64,000 nt of DNA from Phycisphaerae bacterium (GCA_050115495.1 JASFQK010000028.1:1-64000); one strand, 5' to 3'. Positions 2,928 to 53,842 are shown, counted from the stretch's first letter. A program made the numbers and translations. The notes: a model not told the origin generated them from the letters alone.

Positions 2928-5900
2928 ATGAACGGTCGTGAGACGAAAGCCGATCCGCAATCCGAAGCCCGCAATCCGAAATCGGCATGCCCGGACGCGG
3001 CGACACTGGCGGCGTTCATTCGCGGTGAGGCGCCGGCCGAGCAGCTCGACGCGCTCGCGGCTCACCTCGACGAATGCCGCGTCTGCCGCGAGCGCTGCGA
3101 GCGTGACCCCGAACAACTCGCCTTCGACGACAACCTGCGTTGGGCCGATCAGGCTGGGCGCGAAGTGCAGACCGACGTCTCGATTCCGTTGCGGCAGTTC
3201 CGCGAAGCACTGCCCGAGTACGAAGTCATCCGCGAGATCGGCCGCGGCGGCATGGGCATCGTTTTCGAGGCTCGCCACGTGACGCTGAACCGGCCGGTCG
3301 CGCTCAAGGTGCTGCCGGCCCTGCTGCGGGCCGTTCGCGAGGGGGCCGCCGACCGGTTCAAACGCGAGGCCGAGCTGACCGGCCGGCTCAAGCACAACAA
3401 CATCATCAGCGTCTACGATTACGGCGAGCTCGACGGCACCTGCTACTACACCATGGACCTGGTCACCGGCCGCACGCTCAAGGACGTGTTGGAGGAGATC
3501 GAGCAGACCGGCGCCATCGACGTGGTGATCGGGAACGGCTCCGGCAGCGGGAGCAAGGCAACCCTTGACTCGCCGCCGTCTCGCGAAGCGAGCCCCGTCG
3601 CAACGCGACGGCCGGCTTCGCCGGAGGCGGCGTCTCAAGAGCAACAAGGCAACGTGATAACGAGTGATTCCGGAATCGCTGACCTCAAGCCGCAAGCCGC
3701 AAGCCTTCCTCTGACCCGTCTGGGTTCTTCGTCCGCCGCCGACAAGGCCTACTATCGCCGCGTGGCCGAGTGGATGGCCGAGATCGCCGAAGCCGTGCAG
3801 TACGCGCACGAGCAGGGCGTCATTCACCGCGACATCAAGCCGTCCAACCTGATGCTGACCGACGGCGGCCGGATCATGATCACCGACTTCGGCCTGGCGC
3901 GGGCGGTCGATCACAGCGGCGTGACCGCCAGCCGGGCGCTGCTGGGCACGGCCCGCTACATGAGCCCCGAGCAGGCCGACTCGCGGCTGGGACCGATCGA
4001 CGCCAAGACCGACATCTACGCGTTGGGCGCTACGATGTACGAGTTGCTGGCCTTTCGACCGCTCTTCACCGGCCGCGATGACCCCGAGGTCATCCAACGG
4101 CTCCTGCACAGCGAACCCGCGCCGCCGCGGCGGTTCGTGCGGCAGGTGCCGCGTGAGCTGGAGACGATCTGTTTGAAGTCGGTCGAGAAGCAGCGCGGCA
4201 ACCGCTACGATTCCGCCCAGGCCCTGGCCGACGACTTGCGCCGCTGGTTGCTGGATTTGCCTATTCACGCTCGGAGGCCATCGCTGCCGGCGCGCGTCGG
4301 CAAGTTCGTGCGGCGCCGGAGGCTCCCGATGTCGCTGGGGGCGGCGCTGTTGCTCACCCTGGTGGTCACCGCAATCCTGTTCACCAGGTATCGCAGCGCA
4401 TCGCAAGAGAAGATGGCCATCCAGACACAGGCTGACTCACGCGCGGTCCAGGTGTTGCTGTACGAGGCCAAGGCCGACCTGTTCCACAAGGGCCGCTACG
4501 CGGAGGCGCTGGCCAAGTTTGACGAGGCCCTGGCGATCGAACCGGACTCGGTGACGCTGCTCATGAACCGCGCCGAGGCTTTGCGCCATCTGAAACGCCA
4601 CGCGGAGGCGGTCGCCTGCATGGAAGAGGCGTTGCATCTGGAGCCGGGCAACTGGAAAATCCACTTCCACGTGGGCCGTGCCTATGAGGACCTGCCTGAC
4701 GAGAAGAAGTCCGCCGACCACTACCGGCAGGCCGAGCGGCTCAACCCCGACCCAGCCGAAGCGCTCTGCGTTCGCGCCAAGCTCGCGGATGATCCGCAGC
4801 AGGCCGTCGAGTTGCTCACGCAGGCCCTCGATCTCAAACCCAGTGACACGGCTTTCCTGACGGACCGCGCGTGGCGCTACTACGCGCTCGGTGAGCACGA
4901 CGCCATGTTAATGGACGTTCAGCAGTTGGCCGGGGCGCACCCGAACTGGGCGTTCGTGCAGGCGCTGCGCGGCCTTGCACTGTTCAACCTCGGCCGCTAC
5001 GCCGAAGCCGAGCGAGCTTACAGCCGAGCGATCGAGTTGGACCCGGAGTGGCCGACCGTGTGGACCAACCGCAGCGCCTGCCGCGCAATGACCGGCCGCT
5101 TCGCCGAGGCGCTGGCCGACGCCGGCGAGGAGCTCCGCCGCGACCCACAGTACGCCCCGGCGTATTTCAACCGGTGCCGGGCGCGCCGCGGGCTGGGCGA
5201 TCTCGACGAAGCGCTCGCGGATTGCGAGCGGGCGATCCGGCTGGACCCGACCAACGTCCGCTTTCACAGCGAGCGCGGCTACCTGTTCGGCCAGATGGGC
5301 CGTTGGCAGGATTCCGCCGACGCCTACGGCTGCGCGATCCAGCTCGATTCCAACAGCGTTTCCGACTACGGCAGCCGCGGCGTCGCGTTTCTGGAGAGCA
5401 AGCAGTACGATCGGGCCGTCGCGGACTTCACGCGTTGCATCGAGCTCTCCCCCGACGACGTGCGTCCCTATCAGAGCCGAGCGTTCGCGTATCACTTCTC
5501 GCAGCGGTTCGAGCAGGCCATCGCCGACTACACCCGCGCCGTGCAAATGGATCCGGATTACGCCGAAGGCTACAACAACCGCTCGGATTGCCTGATGCGG
5601 CTGGGGCGCTACGCGGAGGCGGCCGCCGATCTGACGCAGCTGATGACCATGCGCTCGAGTCCTAGCGATCGCATGCAACGCGGCTGCGCATATGAGCTGG
5701 CCGGCGATGCGGACGCGGCTCTGGCCGATTACGCCGCGGCGCTCGGGGAACCCGGCCCGGTCGGACAGTACGCTCGGCTGTGGCAATACCTGCTGCTGCA
5801 ACAGACCGGCCGGACGCAGGCCGCGGCGGAGGTGCTTGCGACACACGTCGCCGGCGCGGCGGACAACGCCTGGACCGACCGCGTGTTCGAGTTGCTCGCG

Positions 5901-6137
5901 GGCGACCTGATGCCCGAGGGCTTCCTGGCCGCGGTCGCGACCGAAGAGGAGCGGGCCGAGGCGTATTACTACGTCGGCCGCCGGGCACTGCTCAACGGCG
6001 ACCAGGCCGCCGCCCACACCGCGTTTGAAGCGTGCCTAGCCCTCAACCGCGACGGCGTCACTGAAGTCGACTTCGCCCGGGCGTTACTGGACCGGCTGCG
6101 TCTCAGCGGTCACGGCATCGATGAGGAGCGCCCGTAG
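2928..6137 (+). CDS. Membrane Ser/Thr protein kinase with N-terminal HxxxCxxC zinc motif and C-terminal TPR array
   Basis: GRGGMGIV, VALK, HRDIKPSN, DFGLA, YMSPEQ; HLDECRVC; one TM helix followed by many TPRs. Confidence 0.95.
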   Translation: MNGRETKADPQSEARNPKSACPDAATLAAFIRGEAPAEQLDALAAHLDECRVCRERCERDPEQLAFDDNLRWADQAGREVQTDVSIPLRQFREALPEYEVIREIGRGGMGIVFEARHVTLNRPVALKVLPALLRAVREGAADRFKREAELTGRLKHNNIISVYDYGELDGTCYYTMDLVTGRTLKDVLEEIEQTGAIDVVIGNGSGSGSKATLDSPPSREASPVATRRPASPEAASQEQQGNVITSDSGIADLKPQAASLPLTRLGSSSAADKAYYRRVAEWMAEIAEAVQYAHEQGVIHRDIKPSNLMLTDGGRIMITDFGLARAVDHSGVTASRALLGTARYMSPEQADSRLGPIDAKTDIYALGATMYELLAFRPLFTGRDDPEVIQRLLHSEPAPPRRFVRQVPRELETICLKSVEKQRGNRYDSAQALADDLRRWLLDLPIHARRPSLPARVGKFVRRRRLPMSLGAALLLTLVVTAILFTRYRSASQEKMAIQTQADSRAVQVLLYEAKADLFHKGRYAEALAKFDEALAIEPDSVTLLMNRAEALRHLKRHAEAVACMEEALHLEPGNWKIHFHVGRAYEDLPDEKKSADHYRQAERLNPDPAEALCVRAKLADDPQQAVELLTQALDLKPSDTAFLTDRAWRYYALGEHDAMLMDVQQLAGAHPNWAFVQALRGLALFNLGRYAEAERAYSRAIELDPEWPTVWTNRSACRAMTGRFAEALADAGEELRRDPQYAPAYFNRCRARRGLGDLDEALADCERAIRLDPTNVRFHSERGYLFGQMGRWQDSADAYGCAIQLDSNSVSDYGSRGVAFLESKQYDRAVADFTRCIELSPDDVRPYQSRAFAYHFSQRFEQAIADYTRAVQMDPDYAEGYNNRSDCLMRLGRYAEAAADLTQLMTMRSSPSDRMQRGCAYELAGDADAALADYAAALGEPGPVGQYARLWQYLLLQQTGRTQAAAEVLATHVAGAADNAWTDRVFELLAGDLMPEGFLAAVATEEERAEAYYYVGRRALLNGDQAAAHTAFEACLALNRDGVTEVDFARALLDRLRLSGHGIDEERP

Positions 6138-6140
6138 GTA

Positions 6141-7594
6141 GTCGTTCCTGAAGGAGTATAAAAACGCGTTGGCTGTTGGCTGAAGAGGCACATGGTGGCG
6201 TGTAAACTTTGCCGGGAAATCAGGGACAAACCCCCGAAACCTTGCAAAGTTGAACGGACTCATGAAGCCCAAACCACAGCCCACAGACGCCTTTCAGCTC
6301 TTCCAGGCCCACTTCAAGCAGATCCTCAACCGCGAGCATCCGCTCATCCAGTTGGCGGACCGGATCGACTGGCCGCGTTTTGACGCCGCCTTCGCCGACT
6401 GCTACAGCGAAGACCTCGGCGCGCCGGCCAAGGCGACGCGGCTGATGGTCGGGCTGGCGTACCTCAAGTACACCTTCGACGAATCGGACGAGTCGGTCGT
6501 CGCACGCTGGGTCGAGAACCTCTACTGGCAGTACTTCTGCGGCTTCACGCACATGCAGCATGAAGCCCCCATCGATCCCAGCAGCCTGAGCCGCTGGCGC
6601 AAACGCGTCGGCGCCGAACGACTGGCGTTGCTGCTCAAAGAGACGGTCGAACTGGCCGTGCGTGAGAAGCACCTGCCGAAGCAGGACTTGCGGCAGGTGA
6701 CCGTGGACATCACCTACCCCACCGACTCGAAGCTGCTCTACACGGCGATCGGCAAGCTGGGCCGAGCGGCCCGGGCGTACGGCGTCACGCTGCGTCAGTC
6801 GTACATTCGGGTGGGCAAACACGCCGCGACGAAGGTCAGCCGTTACGCCCACGCCAAGCAGTTCCGCCGCATGCGGCGGGAGTTGCGACGGCTGCGGACC
6901 TGGGTGGGCCGGTTGATCCGGGACATTCGGCGAAAAGCGGGCGAGGTGCCGGAGGATCTGGAGGAGATCCTGGCCAGGGCGGAGTGGATTCGACAGCAGC
7001 AGCCGTCGGATTCGCACAGGCTGTACAGTTGGCACGAGCCGCAGGTGCAGTGCCTCAGCAAGGGCCAAGGCCCGCCAGCGGTACGAGTTCGGCCAGAAGG
7101 TGGCGGTGGCGACGACGAACCGCAGCAACTGGATCGTGGCGGCCAAGTTGCTGGAGAACAATCCGTACGACGGGCACACGCTGGCCGAGACCCTGGCGGC
7201 AGCCGAGTCGATCACCGGCGTGGAGATTGCCGACGCGTACGTGGACAAGGGGTACCGTGGCCACGGCTGTCGCGGTTCGACGGCGGTCCATATTGCCGGG
7301 ACGCGTTCAAAGCACCTTCCCCGCAGTGAGCGGCGACGCCGGCGGCGTCGCAGTGCGATCGAGCCGAAGATCGGGCATCTCAAGAGTGGTCATCGGGTAC
7401 GGCGGTGCTTCCTGAGCGGGCTGGCCAGCGACGCAATCAACATTGTCCTGGCCGCGGCGGCGGCCAATCTCCGCAAGTTGCTCCGGCAGCTTTGCCACGT
7501 GCTGCTCGACTGGCTCCTCCACCAGTTCAACCTGACCCACCCCGCCCGCTCCCAGCGGGTCCACGCCACCTGAGCCGACTTCTTCAGGGACGAC
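6141..7594 (+). mobile_element. IS5-family insertion sequence with terminal inverted repeats
   Basis: GTCGTTCCTGAAGGAGT (6141-6157) versus ACTTCTTCAGGGACGAC (7578-7594), 2 mismatches; TA on both flanks; encloses a transposase. Confidence 0.88.
6250..7573 (+). pseudogene. IS5-family transposase, frameshifted
   Basis: RLMVGLAYLKY...RWVENLYWQYFCG in the first frame. An extra C at about 7065 breaks CLSKG|KARQRYEFGQKV. The second frame carries YVDKGYRG and RRSAIEPKIGHLK. Confidence 0.88.
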
Positions 7595-7596
7595 TA

Positions 7597-7890
7597 GCGA
7601 GATGGAATTGCGGCGAGGAGGACGAGTACATCTACTTCCACGACGCCCAGGGCAATGTGGGGCAGGTGGTCGGCTGGACCGACGACTTCGGCGAGGCCAG
7701 CGGCTCGGCGTGGGACGCCAACCGGCTGGTGGCGACCTACGAATACGCCCCGTACGGCGAGATCCTGGCCTCTTCCGGCGACTTCGCCGCCGTGAACCCG
7801 TTCCGCTTCAGCACCAAGTACTGGGACGACGAGACGGGATTCGGGTACTGGGGCTTCCGGTACTATGACCCGAGAACCGGACGGTGGACG
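7597..7890 (+). pseudogene. Orphan Rhs repeat-associated core fragment
   Basis: YFHDAQGNVGQV...YEYAPYGE...NPFRFSTKYWDDETGFGYWGFRYYDPRTGRW. No start codon, and similarity ends before the DPxG motif. Confidence 0.82.
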
Positions 7891-8069
7891 AGGCTTAACG
7901 GTGGACCGGGCATCACACACCGACAGGCAAGTAGGTTGCATAGACTGTGACTGTGCAACCTGAATCGATCACGGTCGCCGACGGCGTTCCTGGAGCCTCT
8001 GGAGCGCCCCGGCTGCAGCCATAAAATGCACGCACTCGGGGCGGCGGCCCCGTTTATGGATGGTGCGAA

Positions 8070-9380
8070 ATGCCGCGTGACGACACCCCCGAGCAAGCCC
8101 TGCGCGCCGCATCCTGGCAACGCGTACGCGATGACTTCGAACGGCTCGCATCGAAGCCGTTTGTCTCGCTTGTTGCGCTGGTCACGGACGGCGATGCCGA
8201 CCCTTCGGCGTTCCTTCGCGAGCTAGCCGCCCGCGAGAATCGGGTACACTGGCAAGGCACGGTGATTCGACCCGTGGACGGCCAACCCGACGAATACGAG
8301 CCGGTGCCGGATTCGCACCGCCTGTTCGGCTTTGGCGAGCCGGAAGCGTGGGGAGCGTTTCGCGCGGCAGCCATGCGGGCGGGCGTGTTGGCGAAGGCGG
8401 TCCCCGAGCACTTGTTGTCGGCGAGCGTGCGCAACCGCATAGACGACCCGGACCGGTGGGCGTGGGCGCTGGTCGAAATCGGCTGGCGGAAGCTCGATTC
8501 CGTCCCGTTCCGCGCCGAACGGTGGGTTCACGATGACGGCGGCGCGGTTCAGCTCGAATTGGCCCGCGCGACGGGGCTGTACCGGGGCTGGTACTACTCG
8601 GAAATCGGCGACGCCGTCTCGGCGTCTATCGACGTCGTGGACGTACTGCGGACGATGGAGCGCGCCGCGAATCAGACGCCGGCGGATAGCCCCGCGGTGC
8701 GACTCGGCGCGGGCGCGGCGTTCATGCGGGCAGTGGAGGATGATCCGCAAGCACAAGCGGCGTTGAAGTGGGCACAAGCTCGGCTTCGCGCTTTTGCCGA
8801 AGCGCTGAAGGACGCTGAAGTCCAGCGCGAGCTTGAGCGCTCGCGACGCGAACAGGAACAGGCGTTTGAGGCGCTGGCCAACGCGATCCGGGAATCAGTG
8901 CGGGCCGCGCAACAGGACCTTGGGGACTTGGGCTTCATGCCCCCGGAGACACTCGACGATTGGGAGCACCTGGCACGTGTGGTGGAAATTCCCTTCGAGA
9001 CGATTAAGGCCGGGGACTTCTCCTCGCGCGACGTATACGTTATGGCGCTGGCGTGGATGGACCGGCAACGAATGCTGTCACAGCTCAAGCGCAACGGAGA
9101 CACCCCACAGCCGCAAGCTGCAAGCGCGCGCACGGCTGCGGGCCGCCGCGCGTACACCGTAGCCGCGCTGCGCGATATGACGGGGTTGGGAAACAACGCA
9201 CTCAACCGCTATGCGAAGACGGCGAACGTGACGACGCCGCGGCGGGGCGAACGGGACTTCAAGTACACGCTCGCCGACGTACGCGCGATCCTGGGGACAA
9301 TCATCGCGAGCACGGCGGAAGACGGGCTGCGCAACAGGTGCAAAACCGCGCTGCTAAATCTACCGGAAATCGCCGAATAA
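8070..9380 (+). CDS. Hypothetical protein with probable C-terminal MerR-like HTH
   Basis: 436-aa ORF; C-terminal YTVAALRDMTGLGNNALNRYA...KYTLADVRAIL. Confidence 0.6.
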   Translation: MPRDDTPEQALRAASWQRVRDDFERLASKPFVSLVALVTDGDADPSAFLRELAARENRVHWQGTVIRPVDGQPDEYEPVPDSHRLFGFGEPEAWGAFRAAAMRAGVLAKAVPEHLLSASVRNRIDDPDRWAWALVEIGWRKLDSVPFRAERWVHDDGGAVQLELARATGLYRGWYYSEIGDAVSASIDVVDVLRTMERAANQTPADSPAVRLGAGAAFMRAVEDDPQAQAALKWAQARLRAFAEALKDAEVQRELERSRREQEQAFEALANAIRESVRAAQQDLGDLGFMPPETLDDWEHLARVVEIPFETIKAGDFSSRDVYVMALAWMDRQRMLSQLKRNGDTPQPQAASARTAAGRRAYTVAALRDMTGLGNNALNRYAKTANVTTPRRGERDFKYTLADVRAILGTIIASTAEDGLRNRCKTALLNLPEIAE

Positions 9381-13014: not shown

Positions 13015-14433
13015 ATGGCCAAGCGGACACGATCAAAGGGCGCCGGAAGCCTGTTCCGGCGTAATGGGCGGGGGCCGTGGCTGGCGTCCTGGTACGACGT
13101 CGCCGGCAAACGGCACGAGCATAGCATGCGGACCACAGACCGGGCCGCGGCCGAGCGGATCCTGAACAAGATCGTCGCCGACGACGCCCTGAGGCGCGCA
13201 GGGGTGATCGACGCGGACGCGGATCGGTACGCAGCCGCCGAGCGCGTACCCCTCGTGGAGCACTTGAACGCGTACAAGAGCAGCCTGTCGGCCAGAAAGT
13301 GCTCGTCGGACTACGTGGCCGAGCGGTACACAAAAGCCGAGCGTATCCTGGAACTCGCCAGCATCGACCGCACATCGGCGCTGACGGCGTCGGCGGTACT
13401 GGTCGCCATACAGAAGATCCGCGAGGACCGCCGGGACGAGAACGATCCTGGGCCATCCCACCGGACGCTGAACAAGTACATCGCCGCGGTCAAGGGTCTC
13501 TCCAAGTGGCTTCGGCAAGAGCGTCTGACGCGGGAACACCAACTCGAAACGCTCGGGCTGTTCAACGAAGAGGCAGACCAGCGCCATGAGCGGCGGGACC
13601 TGTCCGACGCCGAGTTGCGGCTGCTGATCACCACGACGGCTACACGCGACATCTCGGGCAGCATGACTGGTCTCGATCGTTCGACGCTCTACCTGTTGGC
13701 CGCCTCGACGGGCTACCGTCGCGACGAACTGGCCAGCTTGACTCCCGAATCGTTCGACTTGAACGTAAACCCACCAGCAATCGAATGTGCCGCGTCAGCC
13801 ACGAAGTCCCGCCGCGCCGACCGGCAGCCGATCCGGCGCGACCTCATGCCGCGCCTGCGGGATTGGCTGAAGTCGAAGCCCGCAGGTCGACCGGTCTTCG
13901 GAGACATCCCGCAGAACACGGCCCGGACACTCCGCTGGGACCTGAAGGCGGCCGGGATCCCGTACGAAATGGACGGGCGGGTTTTCGATTTCCACGCGCT
14001 CCGGGGAGCGTACATCTCGCGCGTCGAGCGTTCCGGCGCGAGCGTCGAGACCCTGCAGCAGCTTGCCCGACATACGGACGCCCGAATCACTCTGAAGCGG
14101 TACTCCCGCCTGCGCGTCTGCGACGAGACCAAGGCGGTGGAAGTGACCCCCAGTCTCGTGACGCACACGCCCCCTGAGGCGGTGCCTGCTGCCGCTACCG
14201 GTACCTACGACGCCGCCCCCCCGCTATATCCCCGGCAGTTGGGGCGCGAAAACGAGCGACTGGGTGCGACCGGAGGCGACGCAACCGGCCTTGCGAGCGA
14301 AGTGACCGAATCGTGCAGACCCCTGCAAAACGACGTAAAAAACGGCGTCGTGCGCTTGGGTGCGACCTCGCGCGACGAACGCCCCCAACGAGATTCGAAC
14401 TCGTGTCGCCGGCTTGAAAAGCCGGTGTCCTAG
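13015..14433 (+). CDS. Tyrosine recombinase/integrase
   Basis: TGYRRDEL, TKSRR, DFHALR, LARH...TLKRY catalytic residues. The ORF ends inside the antisense tRNA. Confidence 0.93.
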   Translation: MAKRTRSKGAGSLFRRNGRGPWLASWYDVAGKRHEHSMRTTDRAAAERILNKIVADDALRRAGVIDADADRYAAAERVPLVEHLNAYKSSLSARKCSSDYVAERYTKAERILELASIDRTSALTASAVLVAIQKIREDRRDENDPGPSHRTLNKYIAAVKGLSKWLRQERLTREHQLETLGLFNEEADQRHERRDLSDAELRLLITTTATRDISGSMTGLDRSTLYLLAASTGYRRDELASLTPESFDLNVNPPAIECAASATKSRRADRQPIRRDLMPRLRDWLKSKPAGRPVFGDIPQNTARTLRWDLKAAGIPYEMDGRVFDFHALRGAYISRVERSGASVETLQQLARHTDARITLKRYSRLRVCDETKAVEVTPSLVTHTPPEAVPAAATGTYDAAPPLYPRQLGRENERLGATGGDATGLASEVTESCRPLQNDVKNGVVRLGATSRDERPQRDSNSCRRLEKPVS

Positions 14434-14452
14434 GCCTCTAGACGATGGGGGC
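14380..14452 (-). tRNA. tRNA-Glu (anticodon TTC); CCA not encoded
   Basis: GCCCCCATCGTCTAGAGGCCTAGGACA-CCGGC TTTTCAA GCCGG-CGACACGAGTTCGAATCTCGTTGGGGGCG folds as a cloverleaf. Confidence 0.96.
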
Positions 14453-14772
14453 CACGCGGCCTCATGCCGCAGACCCGTCATTGAACGCCACGGCGGCCTC
14501 CGCGTCAACCCCACCTTTGAACGGCTCGCCGCCTGTTCGGCCCAATCCGCCCGGCCCGCGGGCCGCGCGCACCTTCACCCACGGCCGCCCGGCTGTACCG
14601 CCGCCTCCCCCCAGTCCAGCCGCCGAAATGCCCCGGTCCGACCGCCACACCAACCCGTTCCCGCCGCCACCGCCCCTCCGACCTTGCAGTTCGCTCCTGT
14701 CGCCGTATCCTCCCGGAACGCACGCCGTCCGCGAGCGGCGGCCTGCGCGTCCCCTGCCTATGGAGTACAACC

Positions 14773-16131
14773 TTGATCCGCACAACCGCCCGCCTCGCCA
14801 TCGTCGCCGCCCTGCTTTGCCTCACCGCCTGCCAGCAGCCGCACGCCGCCACGCTTGACCGCCTCGTCATCGGCGAGGTCATGACAAGCAGCGAACTGCC
14901 CGAGAACCTCCGCGCCCTCTGCCTCCCCGGCGGACGGCTCAGCGGCACACCCAACGCCCAAACCGCCGTCGAGTTCGTCGCTGACAAGGCCCGCGAATAC
15001 GGCCTGAAAAACGTGCATTGCGAACCATTCACCATGCCCGGTTGGCAGGTCAACCGCACCGTCGTGACCGTTCCTGGCGAGCCCGATCGCGTTCTGGCGG
15101 ATGCTGTCGCCCTTTGGCTCTCGCGTAGCACGCCCGAAGGCGGCTTAACCGCTGAACTCATCGACGTCGGCGACGGCACGCCCGACGACTTCGCCAGCGT
15201 CGGCGACGCCATGCGTGGCCGCTTCGCCCTCGTCCGCGACGGCCACGGCCGCCGATCCGCCAAGATGCTCCTCGCCCGCGAGCACGGCGCCGTCGGCATG
15301 ATCGTCGCCGAACGCCCCGGCCGCGCCCCGATTATCAGCACCTGCCACCGTGAGCCCCGCCCGGAGCCCGCCGTCGTCATCCGCCGTGAGGACGCCGACC
15401 AATTCGCCGAAACCCTCGCCGCCGGCGGGACGGTCCAGCTGAACGTCCAGGTCGACGCCGACTTCTGGGACGGTCACCCAAACAACGTCGTCGCCGAGAT
15501 CCCCGGCCACGGCCCGCTCGCCCACGAGGTCGTCATCCTCAGCGCCCACCTCGACAGCTGGCACCTCGCCGAGGGCGCCATGGACAACGGCGCCGGCTCG
15601 ACCGCGATCCTCGAAGCCGCCCGTGCCCTCGCCGCTGTCGGCTGGCAGCCCCGCCGCACCGTGCGCTTCGCCTGGTTCCAGGGCGAGGAGCAGGGACTTT
15701 GGGGGAGTAAGGCGTACGTTGCTGCCCACGAGCGCGAAATGGCGGATATTGTCGTCGCCGTCAACTCCGACATGCCCGGCTCGCCGCGGCAGTGGCACAC
15801 CTCCGGCGGCCCGTCGGCGAAGACGTTCCTCCAGGCCCTGCGCGGCCGGCTGGCCGGGTACGAGCTCAGCAACGAGGTCGCCACCCTCGGCGGCCAGTGG
15901 AGCGATCACGCCCCCTTCTGCGACGCCGGTGTCTGCACCATGACGCTTGGCGGTGAACTCGGCGAAGGCGTGATTCACTACCACACCGCCGGCGACAAGT
16001 ACGACGTCGTGGACCGCCGCGCCACAGCGGAAGCCGCCGCCGTCCTCGCCGTCCTGATCCGCAACCTGGCCGACGCCCCGGCATCGACGCTGGCCGACTT
16101 CAAGCCGTCGCCGACGACGCAGCCGGAGTAA
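14773..16131 (+). CDS. M28-family aminopeptidase / carboxypeptidase Q-like with PA domain, probable lipoprotein
   Basis: SAHLDSW, GAMDNGAG, GEEQGLWGS, SDHAPF, HYHTAGD; LTAC lipobox-like signal. Confidence 0.9.
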   Translation: MIRTTARLAIVAALLCLTACQQPHAATLDRLVIGEVMTSSELPENLRALCLPGGRLSGTPNAQTAVEFVADKAREYGLKNVHCEPFTMPGWQVNRTVVTVPGEPDRVLADAVALWLSRSTPEGGLTAELIDVGDGTPDDFASVGDAMRGRFALVRDGHGRRSAKMLLAREHGAVGMIVAERPGRAPIISTCHREPRPEPAVVIRREDADQFAETLAAGGTVQLNVQVDADFWDGHPNNVVAEIPGHGPLAHEVVILSAHLDSWHLAEGAMDNGAGSTAILEAARALAAVGWQPRRTVRFAWFQGEEQGLWGSKAYVAAHEREMADIVVAVNSDMPGSPRQWHTSGGPSAKTFLQALRGRLAGYELSNEVATLGGQWSDHAPFCDAGVCTMTLGGELGEGVIHYHTAGDKYDVVDRRATAEAAAVLAVLIRNLADAPASTLADFKPSPTTQPE

Positions 16132-46376: not shown

Positions 46377-46623
46377 CTTCCGCCCTTTCTGCCACGTTGC
46401 CGGCGACTCGAACTGGCCCGCGCTCTCGCGGCGCGTCGCCTGTAGCCGAGGTCCACGGTCGGGTAGCATCTCTGCCGCCGGCGTTGCTCAGCCAGGCAGG
46501 GCGGGTTCCACCCGCCGCGGCGTCCTGCGTCGGGGCGCACACGTCGAGTCGGCGGCGTCCTGGCCTGTGAACGCTCGGCGGGCAGAGCCTGTCCTAGAAT
46601 CTGTGAACGCTGCTGGTGAAGTC

Positions 46624-46711
46624 GTAGGGCGGGCTTCGCTCGCCGTTTGTGGCGGAGGCGGAAAGACGCGGGATCCGCGCGGCCACGTGCAGCCGGCGTG
46701 GCCCGCCCTAC
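46624..46711. repeat. Inverted pair of GTAG-type REP-like units
   Basis: GTAGGGCGGGC (46624-46634) and GCCCGCCCTAC (46701-46711). Confidence 0.55.
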
Positions 46712-46721
46712 CATCTGCTCT

Positions 46722-46994
46722 CTATGTCCTGGCCGCCCGACCTTCTCTCAGCAGGTCGGCGACGAAGTCGGAGACAATCTCCGCGCCGAGCGAAGCCAGA
46801 CGCTCCTCCACGTCATCGGCGAAGCATTCGAGTATTCCCTTGTCGGCCAGCAAGTCCACGACGCGATGGTGCAGACGGCGCATCAAGTTGCGATCTCGCC
46901 GGACCTCGTCGGGCAGTACGACATTGATACGGCCCCGGTCGTCCTCCTCGGCGTGCTCGGCCATGACTTGAAGGAGCCTCGATTTTCTAGCCAC
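46722..46994 (-). CDS. Small D/E-rich hypothetical protein (90 aa) coupled to the HNH gene
   Basis: GTG at 46994 behind AAGGAGGAGG; overlaps the HNH stop. Confidence 0.65.
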   Translation of the reverse strand: MARKSRLLQVMAEHAEEDDRGRINVVLPDEVRRDRNLMRRLHHRVVDLLADKGILECFADDVEERLASLGAEIVSDFVADLLREGRAART

Positions 46995-47334
46995 GGGCCA
47001 CCTCCTCCTTTGGCCCACGGATGGCGTGGGGGAGAATACTGAAGTGGCCTTCGGCGACGCAGACCTCGATCGTTCGAAATATCGGCTTGTGGACCAGCAG
47101 GTGGCACGATTTACACAGGAAAACGAAGCGATCGGGGCGAATGGGCGGGACGTGATGGATGGTCAGGTTCTCCGTCGAGCCGCAGGCGATGCACGGCGTG
47201 ATCTCGACGCGGCCGGTCCTGACCAGCCGAACGGACTTCCGCCGCAAGCGGTTGCGTTTCCGCTGACGGTGTTTGGCGCCCTTCCCCCGGCGTTTTAATT
47301 GGATGGGATCCCCGGTACTATTGACGGCAACCAT
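46987..47334 (-). CDS. Small Zn-binding HNH-like endonuclease with Arg/Lys-rich N-terminus
   Basis: CIACGSTENLTIHH...FLCKSCHLLVH; RBS AAGGAGG. Confidence 0.72.
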   Translation of the reverse strand: MVAVNSTGDPIQLKRRGKGAKHRQRKRNRLRRKSVRLVRTGRVEITPCIACGSTENLTIHHVPPIRPDRFVFLCKSCHLLVHKPIFRTIEVCVAEGHFSILPHAIRGPKEEVARG

Positions 47335-47544
47335 CTGCACCTCCTTGGGGTGTAGCTTGGCCAGAGCCGGGTCGGTGTTCCACCACCTTCTCGGCTCGCC
47401 TTGCGCATAGGCGGAGCCACCGTGTGACTAAGTAGCACAGGCCGCAGCGCCGCTAGGGCGCACTGGACAGGCTCACGATGACTCCGCACGCTCCGATTGT
47501 CTTAAGAAAGGCATAACGCAACCTGTTCTACTTAGTCGTAGGTA

Positions 47545-47573
47545 AGTATGCCCGATAAACGCGTACAAGTCAA
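47545..47573 (-). promoter_or_regulatory. sigma70-like promoter of the HNH operon
   Basis: TTGACT-N17-CATACT on the minus strand. Confidence 0.65.
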
Positions 47574-47661
47574 GAAAAACCACCCAAAAATGTTCCTAAC
47601 GAAATACAGCGCGGGCTATACCCGCCGGATTTCCTGGCGGACATAGCCCGCCCTGCATCGC

Positions 47662-47960
47662 TACCGCAACGCCCACATCGACATGTGCTGGGCGTGGATG
47701 CCTCGACGCAGTTCCTGAAGGGCTACCTGCTGGCCGCCACGTCGAACAGAGTCTTCATCTTCGGCGGCGATTACATCCCCGTGGAGTGCGTCCTCGGCCA
47801 CGCCCGCCAGAGCGTCGCCCGCGCCCTCGGCGCACTCGTCGACGAAGGCTACCTCACCCGCAGCGACGCCCCCGCCCCGGTCGCCCCCCTCCTCCACACC
47901 AACGCCCACCGCCTCTACCACCTCCCGGCCAAAACGGACAACCTCAAGCACGCCCCGTAG
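47662..47960 (+). pseudogene. C-terminal remnant of an amidohydrolase-family gene
   Basis: YRNAHIDMCWAW, then a frame change to FLKGYLLAATSNRVFIFGGDYIPVE...NAHRLY; no 5' part. Confidence 0.6.
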
Positions 47961-48104
47961 GCGTGAGCTGACGGGTCTTCCACCCGAATTGCCCAGCGGC
48001 CCCGGTCAGGAATCCTTGCTCTTCACGGAAACACTTCTGACGGACACGCCTGCTCTCGTTGCAGTGTCGCCGTCCTCACCTTTCTGGAGTGAAGTAGATT
48101 ACCA

Positions 48105-49508
48105 TTACTGCGACTCGTATTCATAAGCTTGGTACTCGTACGGCTTGCCCTTGAACTGCAGCGTCACGACAGGCACGTTCCGCTCGGCCCCTACCGCAGT
48201 CCATGCTGGCCGGCTAAGGAGAATCGGTGCTCGCGTCCGCCCAAGCCGGCTATCGAAGCGGTGCGCTTCTGCCTCCAAACGTTGCGCGAAATTCACATGA
48301 TCTCCCAGCGGAGCGTACACGCGGCTGCCGCGCGCACCGAAATAGTCAAAGATCACTGGCCCGTAGTTAATCCCGACGCCGAGCCTCATCTCGAGCGGCT
48401 CGTACTCCTTCTCGAAAAACTGGCGCAGCTCCCGCCTTCCAAAAAACTCCGCCTTTAGATCGTCGAACGCCCTACACATTCCTCGTGCCGCCCGCAGCGC
48501 CGGCTCCACCCGGCTGTGCGCGTCCAACGCGGACTCACCAAACAGAGCCATGATGCCGTCCCCAGCCAAACCATGCACTCGCCCGCCAGTCTTTTGTATG
48601 ATCTGTCCCATGCGCTCGTGATACTCCAGCATGAACGTTCTGAGTGCATCGCTCAGGTTGAAATTCCGGAGAATCTCGGTCGCCGGCGTGAAACCGCGAA
48701 TGTCGGCAAACATCACCGCGACCCAGCGCTCCGCCGATGGTACCCGGTGGCTGGGCAAGTAAGTATGTTCTGTTACCCCGTGGTGGTTCTTCAGAAACTG
48801 CGCTGCGCGCGTTCCCATGGTACTAGCTGCCGCTTTCAACTGGCCGATCCGCTCTTCCGGCATCTCCTTGCCAATGCCCCTTTCGCCTCGCCACAGTAAG
48901 ACAACTCCTAGAGCGCCCATGGCCAGTTGGCGTGTACACGCTGACAGCGGCAGCACCAGTAGTTCTGGTGCCCGCAAAGCAATTGCGTCCACCCCATGCA
49001 ATCCAGCACTAGCACGGCGCCGCACTGTCTCATTCACCCAGTCGATCAGAACACTCCAACGGGACGTCTGCATCACAGTCGGCCAGAACGGCACAAACTG
49101 GGATGACAGTCGCAGCAGCCCCTGCTGAAGGCAATTCGCACTCTCGCGTCGCTCCTCCGTCACTCGCACGTATTGCGGCAACGCATCCTCGGCCACATCA
49201 GGCCGACCCGCCAGCCTGTTCCGCGCTCGCAACGCGCCCGAAAGATACGCGCGTGTCCGCTCATCAACGTGCAGCCACGACATCTCCAGGCCCCGCACAG
49301 TGCCGGCGCTATCTCTGCAGTCGGCTTTGGCAAGGAGGTGCATACCGTGCGTACACTCCGCGAAGAAGAGCAACTTGCCGGTAATCTCAGTGAAGATGCG
49401 CCTCAACGAGTAATCCACGCGCTCATCATGCTCTAGCGACATGAAGAGATTGTTTACAAACTGAAGGCATTCGAACTCTAGCCACTCCCGATTCCAATTA
49501 TTCGGCAT
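48105..49508 (-). CDS. Class III nucleotide cyclase with an uncharacterised (possibly GAF-like) N-terminal region
   Basis: VMFADIRGFT, AGDGIMALFG, RLGVGINYG, GDHVNFAQRLE. Confidence 0.9.
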   Translation of the reverse strand: MPNNWNREWLEFECLQFVNNLFMSLEHDERVDYSLRRIFTEITGKLLFFAECTHGMHLLAKADCRDSAGTVRGLEMSWLHVDERTRAYLSGALRARNRLAGRPDVAEDALPQYVRVTEERRESANCLQQGLLRLSSQFVPFWPTVMQTSRWSVLIDWVNETVRRRASAGLHGVDAIALRAPELLVLPLSACTRQLAMGALGVVLLWRGERGIGKEMPEERIGQLKAAASTMGTRAAQFLKNHHGVTEHTYLPSHRVPSAERWVAVMFADIRGFTPATEILRNFNLSDALRTFMLEYHERMGQIIQKTGGRVHGLAGDGIMALFGESALDAHSRVEPALRAARGMCRAFDDLKAEFFGRRELRQFFEKEYEPLEMRLGVGINYGPVIFDYFGARGSRVYAPLGDHVNFAQRLEAEAHRFDSRLGRTRAPILLSRPAWTAVGAERNVPVVTLQFKGKPYEYQAYEYESQ

Positions 49509-49899
49509 CTGGGCTCTCCTCGCTCAGAATGTCCCGCACGTGTTCGAGGAGAAGTTCGAGTTCACAGGGCTTCTGAATCCACTCGTACCGGACCTGCAGG
49601 TCATCCAGCTTGCGTAGATTCCCCGCAGCAAAGGATGCCTCAAGCACAGAAATGAAGATAACTGGGTACCTCGGTACCTGCTTCCTGCTTTTCACGAGGT
49701 CGTAGACAGCCAGAATACCCTCCTGCTGCCCTGTCGGAAGCCGGACGTCAACGAACCAAATGTCGCACTTCGGCGCCTCTTCCATGACTCCATTCCGGTC
49801 AACGGCTTCAAGCACTTCGTAACCGTAGTCCCTGAATAGGTTTACGACGGGGAATCGGAATCCGTCATCATCGTCGGCGACCAGAATCCGGTATGGCAT
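49498..49899 (-). CDS. Single-domain response regulator (receiver)
   Basis: ILVADDDD, FVDVRLP, IFIS, IQKP. Confidence 0.88.
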   Translation of the reverse strand: MPYRILVADDDDGFRFPVVNLFRDYGYEVLEAVDRNGVMEEAPKCDIWFVDVRLPTGQQEGILAVYDLVKSRKQVPRYPVIFISVLEASFAAGNLRKLDDLQVRYEWIQKPCELELLLEHVRDILSEESPDAE

Positions 49900-49909
49900 C
49901 ACGCCACTC

Positions 49910-51730
49910 CTACTGTACAGGGATGTGTACTGAAAACGCCGTGCCTCGACCCACTGCACTCTCTACATGACGCTCCCAGCCGAATCGGTCGAGAATCTGC
50001 TTAACTGCGGTCAAGCCCATCCCGATGCCTCCAGGGTGTCCGCTTGCGCGCCGCGAAAAGCCCGCGTCCCAAATCCGCAGCAGGTCGTCCGGAGGGATTC
50101 CGTGGCCCGTGTCTTTGACGGTCAAGATCGCCGCCTGCCCGTCGCGCCGAAGGCGAATGCGCACGGCGCCGCCCGCACGCGAGTACTTGATGGCATTGTG
50201 CAGGATGTTGTCGACGACGATCCCGAAGTCGGTCCGGTCGACTACGTCGAGCATGACGACTGCCTCGTCAATGTCGGCGGCGAAATCACGTTCGATTCGA
50301 ACGTCGCTGTGAAGCAGGGGCTCTGCTTCCTTCAGTCGGCTGTTCACCAACTCTGCCAGCGGTGTGGCCTCGGGCCGTCGGCGCACCGCGGGATCGCTTG
50401 CATGCTGCGCGACCGCCACCAGAGCCCGCGTCGGCATCATGGCTGCCATCAGGGCCTGCTTGATGAAGTCAATGTGCCGATGGATGCGGTCGTACCTTGG
50501 CGGGTGACCTTCCTGGGCGAAGCGAAGCTCTCGCTCCAGTCCCGACAGGTTCATCGGGACCTGCCCAATCGGCGAACGGATCAGGTGGGCGAGATCCGAG
50601 AGCAACGACGTACGTACACGCTGTCCCACCTCTAGCGTCAGCACGATGAGGCTGGCCATGATACGGCACAGCGCGCGATCAGTTTCCGTGAAGAACGGCT
50701 CGCCTTGGCGGTTCTCGACTTTCAGCACGCCCACGACGGCATCGCGCTCGCCTAACAGCGGCACCGCGTACAGACACTTGAACGTCTTCTGTTGGCTAAG
50801 CCACATGGCCTCGTCCCAACGTCCGCGCCAAGATGCATGGTGTTTCAATTCATCCCACGACTTAGCCCAGAACGGCTGCTTGTGGGCAGCCACCCATGCG
50901 GTAATGCCCTCGATCTCGCCGTTCGGTACGCTTGGATCGCGGAGGTGATACACATGATAAGACTGGGCCTCGATTCGAAAGCCAACTCCATCGGCGAGGT
51001 GGAGTTCTTTCCCGCTGGGATCAACTAGCCACAATGAGCAAATCTCGGCGTGCAGATTCTCGGCAACCGCCTTGACAATCTCGTTGATTAGACGCCGTGG
51101 TTCGAATGGTTGCAGCAGAGCGGCGACCATCTTCGCCGGAACCCGAATGAGTCGCTGTTCGTGCGGTTCCAGCAAGCTGAATGAATGCACCGCCATCGCC
51201 ACATCCGGGACCATCTCCCGAACGGTGCGCCGGTCTTGCTCAGGAAAGCCGGCGGCTGATCCCCTCTTGTTCTCCAACTTGAAAACACCGATTACGCTCT
51301 CGCCAAGCACAACTGGAAAGGCACTCAGGGAGCGGAAATACTGTTCTGGTGCCCCGGCCCACTGCATCGAGTCCCAGCGTCCCCTCCAACAGAATCCGTA
51401 TTCCCGTTTCAATTGCTCAAGCGACGTGATGTGGACTTCCCGACCAGTCTGCGCCACATAACCGGTCACCCCGTCCGCCCTCCGGCCTTCCGGGTCATTG
51501 CGGCGGATTTCGTACTGAATCTCCTGAGCGATCGTCTGAGGTTCCTTGGCTGATGCGGCGAGCAGACGCAGGCGATCAACGCCTGCTTCGTCCTTGTATC
51601 TGCGCCAGAGCGTGCACACTTCAGCATCGAAGACTTCGGCGCACGTCTCGACTATCCTCCGGCCCATCTCGTCGAACGAGTTCGTCTTCGAGATCGCAGC
51701 GAGAATTGACTCGCGGGCACTTGTGGCCAT
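49910..51730 (-). CDS. Cytoplasmic tandem-GAF sensor histidine kinase
   Basis: Two GAF repeats; H-box LAHLIRSP; NAIKYS, DTGHGI, GIGMGL. Confidence 0.9.
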   Translation of the reverse strand: MATSARESILAAISKTNSFDEMGRRIVETCAEVFDAEVCTLWRRYKDEAGVDRLRLLAASAKEPQTIAQEIQYEIRRNDPEGRRADGVTGYVAQTGREVHITSLEQLKREYGFCWRGRWDSMQWAGAPEQYFRSLSAFPVVLGESVIGVFKLENKRGSAAGFPEQDRRTVREMVPDVAMAVHSFSLLEPHEQRLIRVPAKMVAALLQPFEPRRLINEIVKAVAENLHAEICSLWLVDPSGKELHLADGVGFRIEAQSYHVYHLRDPSVPNGEIEGITAWVAAHKQPFWAKSWDELKHHASWRGRWDEAMWLSQQKTFKCLYAVPLLGERDAVVGVLKVENRQGEPFFTETDRALCRIMASLIVLTLEVGQRVRTSLLSDLAHLIRSPIGQVPMNLSGLERELRFAQEGHPPRYDRIHRHIDFIKQALMAAMMPTRALVAVAQHASDPAVRRRPEATPLAELVNSRLKEAEPLLHSDVRIERDFAADIDEAVVMLDVVDRTDFGIVVDNILHNAIKYSRAGGAVRIRLRRDGQAAILTVKDTGHGIPPDDLLRIWDAGFSRRASGHPGGIGMGLTAVKQILDRFGWERHVESAVGRGTAFSVHIPVQ

Positions 51731-52533
51731 GCGGCACGATTCCTTTCTAAGCGCACTTGGCAAGTATACCGCAATCTCAAGCCGCTTGATTCGTCTTCTG
51801 TCGGGACGAACACGCCCTACCGCCAAGTCTATTCTAGTGCTCCAGGTCCCGCGATAGCGGCTGCCCTACCGGCAATCGAAACCGCTCACGGTGCGGACCT
51901 CTGCCGGTTCCGCCCATGAGACCGCGGCGTTTGGGCCGGGACTCGCGCATCCGGTTCAGTCCTGGGCGTGCTTCAGGAGGCTTGGGTCGTGCTCAGGCTG
52001 CGCCGGCGTCTAGTCCCGTGCGTAGCTCGTTTGCATGAGAGCGAATACGTGAGCTGGTTGGAACACCGACCGAGCAGAGAAGGACGTTGTTCATGTCCGA
52101 GTCCCCTCTCGCCGCGTCGCCCGACTGCACAAACGCCCGTGCGAAATGATGAGGATCCTGACCGCCAAGCCAACTCACTCGCCGAACACCGAGCGCGGCC
52201 GACACGCGTTACTGAAGCCGCTGCTCGTTCGCAGCGTGCGGCGTCGCGTCAGCGGCCCGGGGACGGGAAGTGATTCATCGACAAGGCTCTACCGCTCAAG
52301 CTGTTGGCGCCCGTCAGGGCAGGCACCTGATCGAACGCCGGGCGTTGTCATGCCTCGAACGATGCTGCAAGAAGTTCGGCCTCGACGCGGTGCCGTTGCC
52401 CGTGTTTGTCGAAGACTGGGGCGAGCATCCGTCGCGCATTCTAGATCTTGCCCGTGGACTTGCACGCTCCAGGATTCGCGACACGACTGCAGCGTCGTCG
52501 GGGAGCGTACATTGACGGGTTCTGTGCGCATAA

Positions 52534-52560
52534 GAAACCCCCGCACGTCGCGGGGGTTTC
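52534..52560 (-). terminator. Terminator hairpin downstream of tRNA-Glu(CTC)
   Basis: GAAACCCCCGC-5nt-GCGGGGGTTTC perfect stem. Confidence 0.75.
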
Positions 52561-52568
52561 GCGTGAAT

Positions 52569-52641
52569 CGCCCCCACGGGGACTCGAACCCCGGTCTCCA
52601 GGATGAGAACCTGATATCCTAGGCCGCTAGACGATGGGGGC
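52569..52641 (-). tRNA. tRNA-Glu (anticodon CTC); CCA not encoded
   Basis: GCCCCCATCGTCTAGCGGCCTAGGATA-TCAGG TTCTCAT CCTGG-AGACCGGGGTTCGAGTCCCCGTGGGGGCG. Confidence 0.96.
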
Positions 52642-52792
52642 TATGACTCGCCGAAACGAGTGTTTTGACTAACCTTAGCGGCTCGCCCCGCCACAGTCAA
52701 CGGGGCCGCCACGAACCGCCGCTATCGGACGGCCTCCGACCCCCTGCCGACGCGGCCGTCCCGGTGCAGCACCGCCGATTCAGCCCGGCCTA

Positions 52793-53842
52793 TCACGGGC
52801 TCGCGCCGGCGGCGATCAGCTCGTCAGGGCCCGTCACGTGCCGGCCCGGCGGCCAGGCGCGGGTCGGGTCGTACCATTCCCGCCACGCCGACTCCCACTC
52901 TTCCCGGCTCTTCACGTTGATGAACGCCGCCCGCACGCGGGCCGGGAACGGGTGCCGCTTCGCGTAGCGAATGCCAAACTTCCGCATCACCTTCGGCCCG
53001 ATCTTCGGACCGTGAAGCTGCTCGACCAGGTCGAAATGCTCCCGGATCACCCGCCCCTGCTCCGCCACGGTCGGCGGCTCCGGCAGCGGCTGACCCGCCA
53101 GCACCGCCCGGGCCTCGCGAAAGATCCACGGATTGCCGATGCAGCCGCGCGCCACCGACACGCCGTCCACGCCCGTCTGCGACAGCATGCGGGCGATATC
53201 GTCCGCCGTGAACAAATCGCCGCTGCCCAGCACTACCCCCGCGCCGGCGTGCCGCTTCACGCGAGCCAGGAAGCCCCAATCCGCCGCCCCCATGTACCGC
53301 TGCCGGACGGTCCGCCCGTGCACGGTCACCGCCGCCAGACCCAGCTCGAAAGCGGCGTCGAAGATGCGGAAGAAATCCCGCTCGCTCTCCGCCGAGTCGT
53401 CCATCCCCCGCCGCATCTTCACCGTCACCGGCACCGCCGGCGGGACGGCCTCTCGCACCCGCCTCAGGATCTCCAGCGCCTGCGGCACGTCGGACAGCAG
53501 GTACCCGCCCCGGCACCGCCCCAGCACCTTCTTCACCGGACAGCCGAAGTTGATGTCCACCACATCGAACCCGCTCTCGGCCAGCAGCGCCGCCGCCTCG
53601 GCGAACTCCGCCGGCGTCGCCCCGATGACCTGCCCGCCGACCGGGTGGTCCTCGGCACAGAGCGTCAGCACCTTCCGCTGAAACTTGCCGGCGTGCGTCA
53701 GCGACCGGTCCAGAACGACCTCGTGCAGGGCGTACGGCGCCCCCAGCCGCCGGGCGATCAGCCGCATCGGCAGATCGCTGTAGCCAGCCAGGGCCGCCTG
53801 CGACAGTGGAACATCGAGCTGTACGGGGCCGATTTTGAGCAT
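52793..53842 (-). CDS. tRNA-dihydrouridine synthase (DusB-like)
   Basis: AALAGYSD, DINFGCP, VTVKMR, TVHGRT, ARGCIGNPWIF. Confidence 0.92.
   Translation of the reverse strand: MLKIGPVQLDVPLSQAALAGYSDLPMRLIARRLGAPYALHEVVLDRSLTHAGKFQRKVLTLCAEDHPVGGQVIGATPAEFAEAAALLAESGFDVVDINFGCPVKKVLGRCRGGYLLSDVPQALEILRRVREAVPPAVPVTVKMRRGMDDSAESERDFFRIFDAAFELGLAAVTVHGRTVRQRYMGAADWGFLARVKRHAGAGVVLGSGDLFTADDIARMLSQTGVDGVSVARGCIGNPWIFREARAVLAGQPLPEPPTVAEQGRVIREHFDLVEQLHGPKIGPKVMRKFGIRYAKRHPFPARVRAAFINVKSREEWESAWREWYDPTRAWPPGRHVTGPDELIAAGASP

Follow-up and report, generated by a model that had tools for sequence, protein, structure and literature searches.

A class III nucleotidyl cyclase without the canonical adenine-reading residues in a kinase–receiver–cyclase cassette of a Phycisphaerae bacterium

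Among described class III cyclases, CyaB of Pseudomonas aeruginosa (3R5G) and CyaC of Arthrospira (Spirulina; 1WC1) come closest, both in fold and in sequence, to the protein analyzed here. CyaC has a hybrid kinase–receiver architecture and is under receiver control; receiver control of CyaB is reportedly exerted through the Pil-Chp system. According to the accessible part of PMC7384201, N1 and N6 of adenine are read by a Lys and an Asp or Thr, and in guanylyl cyclases the Glu that reads N1 and N2 is the main determinant, the second residue being loosely conserved. In the Pycsar systems (PycC cyclase plus PycTM effector), pyrimidines are selected by bulky or polar residues, which the available portion of PMC11224242 gives as F100/R142/Q144 in EaPycC, F60/K104/F109 in AnPycC and Y50/D94/R97 in BcPycC. 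According to the available text of the Pucsar preprint (bioRxiv 10.64898/2026.08.12.744502), the pocket of BcPycC is too tight to accommodate guanine. In the same text the signal of Pucsar (PucC plus PucTM or PucTIR) is cGMP, a PycTM-family effector works with a cGMP-making cyclase, and the cyclase PfPucC belongs to the Pycsar clade.

The window, a stretch of 64,000 nucleotides from a Phycisphaerae bacterium (positions are counted from its first letter), carries on its minus strand an intact ORF (48105–49508) encoding a 467-aa GAF-class III nucleotidyl cyclase, P0001. The assignment rests on the ORF call, on Pfam (Guanylate_cyc, PF00211, residues 262–416, E 1e-8), on alignments and on an AlphaFold2 model with a mean pLDDT of 92. 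Structure comparison and alignments place the catalytic domain at residues 255–467 (48108–48746, minus strand). Its nearest solved fold is CyaB (Z 20.7, rmsd 2.0, 189 residues aligned), followed by CyaC (20.4), Cya2 (19.5), BcPycC (19.3) and EaPycC (16.9); as Cya2 and BcPycC score just 1.2–1.4 lower than CyaB, the fold alone separates these cyclases poorly. Residues 1–245 (48774–49508, minus strand), when folded alone, appear as a divergent GAF-fold domain: the best VIA-align match has a Z of 10.4 (rmsd 3.6, 150 aligned), and nearly every row of the top 50 is a GAF-containing protein. For the same residues Foldseek returned zero matches at E ≤ 0.001 and Pfam no match to the domain; NCBIfam assigned P0001 to no family.

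P0001 shares with CyaB and CyaC the metal, Asn/Arg and pyrophosphate residues. The two metal-binding Asp and the transition-state Asn/Arg, which had been recognized in the sequence-only reading of this DNA, align with CyaC, CyaB and Cya2: D269 (FADIRGF, 48702–48704), D317 (AGDG, 48558–48560), and N406 (48291–48293) and R410 (48279–48281) of VNFAQR; K455 is also among the catalytic residues. From these intact residues, P0001 is very likely to be catalytically active. The loss of the adenine readers claimed in that reading was borne out as well. G313, within the beta2 motif HGLAGD (48558–48575, minus strand) that stands for DK(F)(L/M/V)GD, aligns with the Lys of DKFVGD in CyaC and CyaB, and A399 aligns with the Thr of FTAIG/YTIIG in the same enzymes. 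Two further differences from CyaB and CyaC had escaped it: two positions ahead of the second Asp, A315 takes the place of a Val, Leu or Met, and in the canonical VVG strand, beta4, D388 takes that of the Gly. D388 and A399 bound the beta4–beta5 hairpin (48312–48347, minus strand), delimited by conservation and by the model strands 375–390 and 397–401.

P0001 does not have the Glu that canonical guanylyl cyclases carry at the Lys position, nor does any of 36 rows of its clade. It does have a small residue at the second position, A399 (Ser, Ala or Gly in 26 of 30 rows), a guanylyl-cyclase-type trait that is weakly diagnostic. By homology, fold and motif, P0001 is thus a class III cyclase but neither a canonical adenylyl nor a canonical guanylyl cyclase. 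The small residue at the Thr position recalls Cya2 (2W01), where it is Gly. If D388 serves, P0001 would also share with Cya2 and RhGC an acid as main guanine reader; unlike their Glu, which stands at the Lys position, this only candidate acid would lie on the neighbouring strand.

Non-canonical base residues in a class III cyclase are also what PycC offers, and the analogy had been drawn in the sequence-only reading; here it does not hold. In a profile search with the P0001 family, CyaC (E 1e-20) and CyaB (2e-18) are much nearer than the PycC structures 6YII (1.3e-6), 8JSF (EaPycC, 1e-3) and 7R65 (BcPycC, 4.5e-3), and the PADLOC PycC scores (15–46 bits) are similar to those of sister cyclases that keep Lys and Thr. 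Around the second Asp, the bulky or polar pyrimidine-restricting residues are missing: P0001 has G313, A315, G318 and M320, against R142/Q144 in EaPycC, K104/F109 in AnPycC and D94/R97 in BcPycC, and its pocket positions are small. The offsets for EaPycC and AnPycC were taken from published residue numbers; those for BcPycC use metal Asp numbers that we presume to be correct. Membership in PycC was accordingly rejected, by sequence and by pocket. PfPucC has a Glu four residues before the second Asp in the available preprint text (E118/D122, although one legend gives Gly118), whereas P0001 has Gly; PfPucC also belongs to the Pycsar clade (bioRxiv 10.64898/2026.08.12.744502), whose PycC enzymes P0001 does not resemble in sequence.

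A protein search with P0001 gave 28 close matches including the query (39–57% identity) and, as the next 10, proteins of 31–45% identity over shorter stretches. The Lys is present in none of the 28 best matches and in all 10 of the next (DKF(L/M)GDG), nine of which keep the Thr as well; this split is not a matter of chance. Both sets have the GxVxF(D/E)YxG strand and GDHVNFAQRLE. The bulky strand GPVIFDYFG, which the sequence-only reading had pointed out, was indeed found (residues 383–391), but, as Lys/Thr-bearing relatives have it too, it is a family trait, and we rejected it as a specificity switch. A quick IQ-TREE catalytic-domain tree (107 rows, SH-aLRT support only, rooted at the midpoint, with 13 ordinary cyclases for outgroup and without rows that scored below 128 bits or had at least 70 gaps) joins the Lys-less proteins in one clade of 36 rows, with an SH-aLRT of 95 (80 when P0130 is included), nested in a larger family in which Lys and Thr are mostly retained. 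All 36 rows lack the Lys, and since loss of the ATP-reading residues spans the whole clade, a changed or relaxed product was a fair suggestion. The Gly and Ala themselves are not fixed: the Lys is lost clade-wide, but the exact letters that replace it and the Thr vary.

Conservation was counted in 30 non-redundant clade rows, three catalytically broken rows being excluded. The Lys position holds Gly in 12, Ser in 7, Ala in 6, Arg in 2, and Asn, Gln and Thr in one each; position 315 is Ala in 19, Ser in 7, Thr in 3 and Met in one; and the Thr position is Ser in 16, Ala in 5, Gly in 5, Asn in 2, and Thr and Cys in one each. Position 388 is Asp in 28 rows and Glu in 2, with Asp or Glu in 24 of 27 sister rows (these were partly picked for having Lys, so that their Lys count is no result). 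R396 is present in 30/30 clade rows versus 15/27 sister rows, and position 397, a Glu in 24 of the 27 sisters, is Val, Thr or Ile in the clade (V397 in P0001). Six positions that are near-fixed in the sisters (312, 313, 314, 397, 400 and 315) are altered together, and R396, R433, P434 and W436 are invariant residues new to the clade. The catalytic D/D/N/R set is intact in 30 of the 33 clade rows that span all four sites, the exceptions being P0008, P0010 and P0011, and the pyrophosphate Lys is kept in 31 of 32 covered rows, at catalytic-domain identities of about 45–60%.

Loss of catalytic residues also affects at least two further side branches of the family that are without the Lys; together with the broken clade rows, these indicate that the family does give rise to pseudo-enzymes. 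Metal-binding residues are largely lost in three separate branches: that of P0008, P0010 and P0011; that of P0175, P0190, P0200, P0203, P0233 and the cyclase of locus L172; and that of P0133, P0137, P0144, P0154, P0164, P0183 and P0208. L172 still keeps a kinase–receiver cassette beside its degenerate cyclase, which suggests a pseudo-cyclase output. No longer, effector-fused form of the cyclase was found at E ≤ 1e-25 among 8000 candidates, which is weak evidence.

The cyclase is the last gene of a closely spaced cassette, all on the minus strand. A soluble GAF-GAF histidine kinase (49910–51730, likely ATG at 51730, ORF to 51826; two GAF and a HATPase_c match in Pfam) is followed by a single-domain response regulator (49498–49899, likely ATG at 49899, ORF to 49959; Pfam Response_reg 2.3e-8, and alignment), whose final 11 nt overlap the start of the cyclase gene. 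The acidic pocket, phospho-acceptor Asp and Lys of the receiver are all intact, and the H-box His of the kinase (HLIRSP/HVIRAP) is invariant in 6/6 aligned homologues; the locus thus holds the kinase His and ATPase domain and the receiver Asp and Lys of a two-component system. The kinase is 53–56% identical to kinases from other cassettes. Profile comparison showed no likeness between the kinase GAFs and the GAF of the cyclase family. A WxGxWD-like motif is conserved in both kinase GAFs and occurs also in GAF-fused cyclases such as P0139.

A kinase and a receiver lie directly upstream of the cyclase at all eight distinct clade loci with upstream DNA (the window, L001, L081, L083, L086, L087, L088 and L163); L084 and L085, which are cut off, and L167, a GAF-fused fragment, stand outside this count. 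At L087 a PAS kinase replaces the GAF-GAF kinase, and at L163 the kinase and receiver genes are both frameshifted, perhaps by assembly error. P0018 carries a homologous receiver and the cyclase in one polypeptide. The same gene order is found at the Lys/Thr sister loci L002 and L090–L093, and at L099 and L172; the L096 cyclase stands alone, and L094, L095, L097, L178 and L186 encode longer GAF-cyclase fusions.

We modelled the receiver together with the cyclase. The complex scored 0.72, the best of three controls scoring 0.00; this mark is reached by 116 of 157 solved complexes and by 2 of 215 mismatched pairs, a calibration that is rough for alignments of our making. Between runs, at least 89% of the contacts are the same, and partner pLDDT is 88 or more. 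Receiver residues 13–24 and 108–119 are predicted to dock on helices in the cyclase GAF, at residues 7–20, 45, 48 and 90–99. This receiver surface is the one that normally binds kinases, and the model's pass may therefore partly reflect likeness to solved complexes. With gene order and model taken together, it is likely that the cassette is one unit in which the receiver controls the cyclase. Direct binding of a separately encoded receiver by a divergent N-terminal GAF, as predicted here, would set P0001 apart from CyaB and CyaC.

The cassette lies in a low-GC insert (47670–52568; delimited by GC, GC3 and the contig) that abuts the 3′ end of a tRNA-Glu(CTC) gene (52569–52641, minus strand), the probable insertion site. 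GC is 0.56–0.64 in the insert versus 0.65–0.71 in the flanks, and GC3 is 0.65–0.70 in the cassette versus 0.85–0.90 in five host genes. From this composition and context, the cassette is horizontally acquired and foreign to its host. No att-like repeat of the tRNA 3′ end was found in the window. A single contig of run X1 covers 47670–52604; its depth over the insert, 16.3 versus 21–23, is not to be read as a share of cells. Another contig of the same run links 52658 to 46538 across six intervening letters, and yet another skips 46519–53741 with only 24 letters on its short side; either could stem from DNA in which the insert is excised or absent, or from a repeat artefact. In RNA run X2 (10% of words), four short contigs, of 7 contigs in all, fall on the cyclase, receiver and kinase genes; as an RNA library can hold DNA, these are not taken as evidence of expression.

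Downstream of the cassette there are just a gene fragment and a small repeated element. The fragment (47600–47960, plus strand) is likely a gene remnant at the insert edge, with only weak HTH matches in Pfam and no second copy in the genome; we take its frame to resemble the C-terminal end of an amidohydrolase-like protein. The repeated element (46540–47740), probably mobile, includes an HNH-like ORF (46987–47340, minus strand) and a 98-aa ORF (46722–47018, minus strand); copies with 83–97% identity lie on contigs C66, C16, C11, C61 and C4, and its depth is raised in run X1.

Among 401 genomes of the phylum, the cassette cyclase occurs in one, the host itself (G000), and in 0/400 others at E ≤ 1e-40. 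Across 185,579 species genomes we found at least three other clade loci, in two Acidobacteriota MAGs and a Methylococcales fragment. IMG/VR holds no relative of P0001, and PLSDB plasmids none over 80% of its length. In contrast to CyaB and CyaC, P0001 is thus rare and horizontally acquired, not housekeeping. Elsewhere in the host genome there is a CHASE2 cyclase of the canonical Lys/Thr type. Two cNMP-binding proteins, one a CRP-type regulator and the other a lone protein, are encoded on other contigs, and neither shows a TIR match. Contig C37 of the same genome carries a 966-aa protein (L190, 1515–4415, minus strand) that combines a Ser/Thr kinase domain and TPRs with a weak cyclase domain at its N terminus.

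Four of the 11 distinct clade loci carry a PycTM gene immediately beside the cassette, against none of 15 loci outside the clade. The PADLOC E-values are 5.5e-28 (L083), 1.7e-27 (L163), 6.2e-21 (L088) and 6.8e-11 (L086), and Pfam agrees for three. At L083 and L163 the gene is downstream on the same strand (gap of 41 nt at L083), at L088 it is upstream, again on the same strand, with a gap of about 20 nt to the kinase gene, and at L086 it is downstream and convergent. The enrichment is weak, with a Fisher p of 0.022, of 0.052 with L083 and L163 merged and of 0.070 in the strictest table, kin not being independent: the catalytic domains of L083 and L163 are 78% identical, those of the other pairs 45–53%. 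Among clade negatives, three have 3 kb on both sides (the window, L081 and L087) and four have incomplete flanks (L001, L084, L085 and L167); of the 15 negatives outside the clade, seven have near-full flanks. In genome G401 the cassette-adjacent PycTM is the sole PycTM match, and genome G402, which holds L001, has no Pfam PycTM match. Genome G404, which holds a locus outside the clade, has a PycTM match, though none was seen within that locus. A search for further cyclase contigs through the PycTM neighbours gave 6 matches, 4 of them the seeds.

Other defence genes lie near three of these loci (QatC-like and primase genes at L083, a DpdB/DndB-like gene at L163, Cas9 at L086), so that PycTM may share no more than a defence island with the cassette; its position right next to the cassette in three layouts speaks for a closer link. 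PycTM is probably a functional partner within the clade, to judge by adjacency and by analogy with Pycsar. L083 carries QatC-like, PIN and TOTE primase genes at 3006–4942 and 13225–14910, and L163 has, within 4248–9077, a radical SAM gene, a DGQHR/DpdB-like gene and what we presume, from a motif, to be an HSP90-like ATPase. At L087 a DACNV sensor-domain protein (13923–15419), possibly another nucleotide-signalling module, is encoded 2.5 kb downstream of the cassette, near a Mu-type transposase and a recombinase.

The PycTM neighbours also match CBASS 2TM profiles, and in the available parts of the sources PycTM-family proteins serve cCMP, cUMP and cGMP systems (PMC11224242; bioRxiv 10.64898/2026.08.12.744502); the neighbours therefore indicate a dedicated signal but not its base. 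Among solved structures they had no match from which a ligand class could be read. In gene content, the Lys-less clade is partly Pycsar/Pucsar-like, with small pocket positions and a kinase and receiver in the unit as differences from Pycsar. The window copy has neither PycTM nor CNBD-TIR adjacent, and Pfam, PADLOC and a custom profile gave 0 PycTM matches in the host genome (92% complete); the copy is then either the orphan of an effector-linked system or a plain signalling unit. The view taken in the sequence-only reading, signalling and not defence, thus stands for this copy but not for the clade. In the open-access literature we found no description of a kinase–receiver–cyclase–PycTM unit. 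The Pucsar main text, as available, does not contain the terms "histidine kinase" or "response regulator", its immune-cyclase survey text names no kinase-linked clade (bioRxiv 10.64898/2026.08.12.744502), and in the accessible part of Kaur et al. (PMC7159879) cNMP cyclases appear only in other conflict systems.

As regards the product, the trend of the P0001 pocket seems opposite to that of PycC: Gly313, Ala315 and Ala399 would empty and widen it. Judging by the strand ranges of the model and by what we take to be the usual cyclase topology, D388 would face A399 across the hairpin and, with the Lys gone, may present a free acid to the edge of the base; we infer D388 and R396 to be candidate replacement base readers. 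A compensating Lys or Asp in the pocket had been named in the sequence-only reading as a point against a new specificity, and D388, Asp or Glu in 30/30 rows, may be one. Its presence as Asp or Glu in most of the Lys-bearing sisters means that it may instead be structural, and a Lys position that varies, with no single new residue, fits relaxation as well as re-specification. On the model, an acid in a roomy pocket fits guanine or a purine mix better than a pyrimidine and is also compatible with continued adenine binding via N6. A product other than cAMP alone is probable from the residues lost. cGMP or a purine mix may well be the main product, cAMP is a lesser possibility, a pyrimidine cNMP is improbable, and a protein without product more improbable still. 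On the whole, the residues seen in the sequence-only reading were confirmed and its interpretation is partly supported.

The reading that we tentatively prefer is that of a two-component-gated cyclase whose purine signal is not cAMP only, and which has been partly recruited to Pycsar-like defence, the window copy being without effector. The three genes would travel as a mobile signalling cassette. The GAF-GAF kinase would sense a cytoplasmic cue and phosphorylate the receiver, which, by docking on the N-terminal GAF as modelled, would shift the helix leading into the catalytic domain and switch the cyclase homodimer; the dimer, which has the residues for two metals, would then make a cNMP. The clade would derive from CyaC/CyaB-like adenylyl cyclases by loss of the Lys/Thr readers and widening of the pocket, with D388 and R396 fixed on the hairpin, and the product would most likely be a purine cyclic nucleotide, cGMP or a cGMP/cAMP mix. 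A purine signal, a PycTM-family 3TM effector and a more permissive pocket would be shared with Pucsar as its preprint describes it in the available text (bioRxiv 10.64898/2026.08.12.744502). Where PycTM is present, adjacency and analogy suggest that the signal opens this membrane effector; the window copy would be an orphan, or would signal to host cNMP receptors.

P0001 might, rather, still be an adenylyl cyclase, in which D388 contacts N6 in place of the lost Thr/Asp, catalysis can do without the Lys and the host CRP receives the cAMP, the PycTM neighbours being island passengers or cAMP readers. We consider this rather unlikely. It agrees with descent from Lys/Thr cyclases, with CyaB and CyaC as nearest solved folds, with a Ser or Thr at the Thr position in 17/30 rows and with a host that encodes, besides a CRP-type regulator, one more protein that binds cNMP, and no PycTM; moreover, the Lys-less mycobacterial Rv1900c and Rv0386 reportedly make cAMP. 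It leaves aside, however, that six near-fixed positions change together, that the host already has a canonical cyclase, and that gating a toxic effector by housekeeping cAMP would be costly. A pyrimidine cyclase making cCMP or cUMP, with PycC chemistry converged on through different residues, would suit PycTM, the commonest partner of pyrimidine-favouring Pycsar subclades in the available preprint text (bioRxiv 10.64898/2026.08.12.744502). The PycTM-linked L083 and L163 cyclases have an Arg at 313, four positions ahead of the second Asp, as does EaPycC, a cCMP enzyme, with its R142; this is a pointer against a purine. At the same position, however, the window protein has Gly, L086 Ala and L088 Ser; all lack a bulky or polar residue two before the Asp (Q144 in EaPycC, K104 in AnPycC, D94 in BcPycC), and the pocket would grow, not shrink, so that we hold this reading improbable. 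That the two-component system has as its output a cyclase in decay, or one that binds nucleotides without catalysis, with a drifting pocket and no product that matters, is very unlikely: the variable Lys and Thr positions, the 3 broken rows out of 33 and the side branches that lost Lys and metal Asp together would agree with it, but it is opposed by the D/D/N/R set and pyrophosphate Lys kept in nearly all clade rows and by the four new invariant residues.

A bolder possibility, which we find doubtful, is that the clade is an undescribed immune system independent of PycC: the kinase would sense infection or stress, the receiver would switch the rebuilt cyclase, and a private signal, be it cGMP, a pyrimidine or a modified-purine cNMP, would open a PycTM pore. 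If true, this would be a system of the Pycsar type whose sensor is explicit, with the Lys/Thr sister cassettes as its pre-immune ancestor. The activation of Pycsar-type cyclases is poorly understood; the kinase–receiver wiring would give one of them a defined input, testable by phospho-mimic without phage. The occurrence of the same cassette with Lys/Thr and with Lys-less cyclases forms a natural series on the base-choice residues of class III enzymes, which bears on whether an acid on beta4 can stand in for the canonical readers. If only cAMP were made, the value would lie in a new two-component cyclase cassette and in the warning that Lys loss does not predict product. The family offers a link between two-component signalling and immunity of the Pycsar type that can be put to the test.
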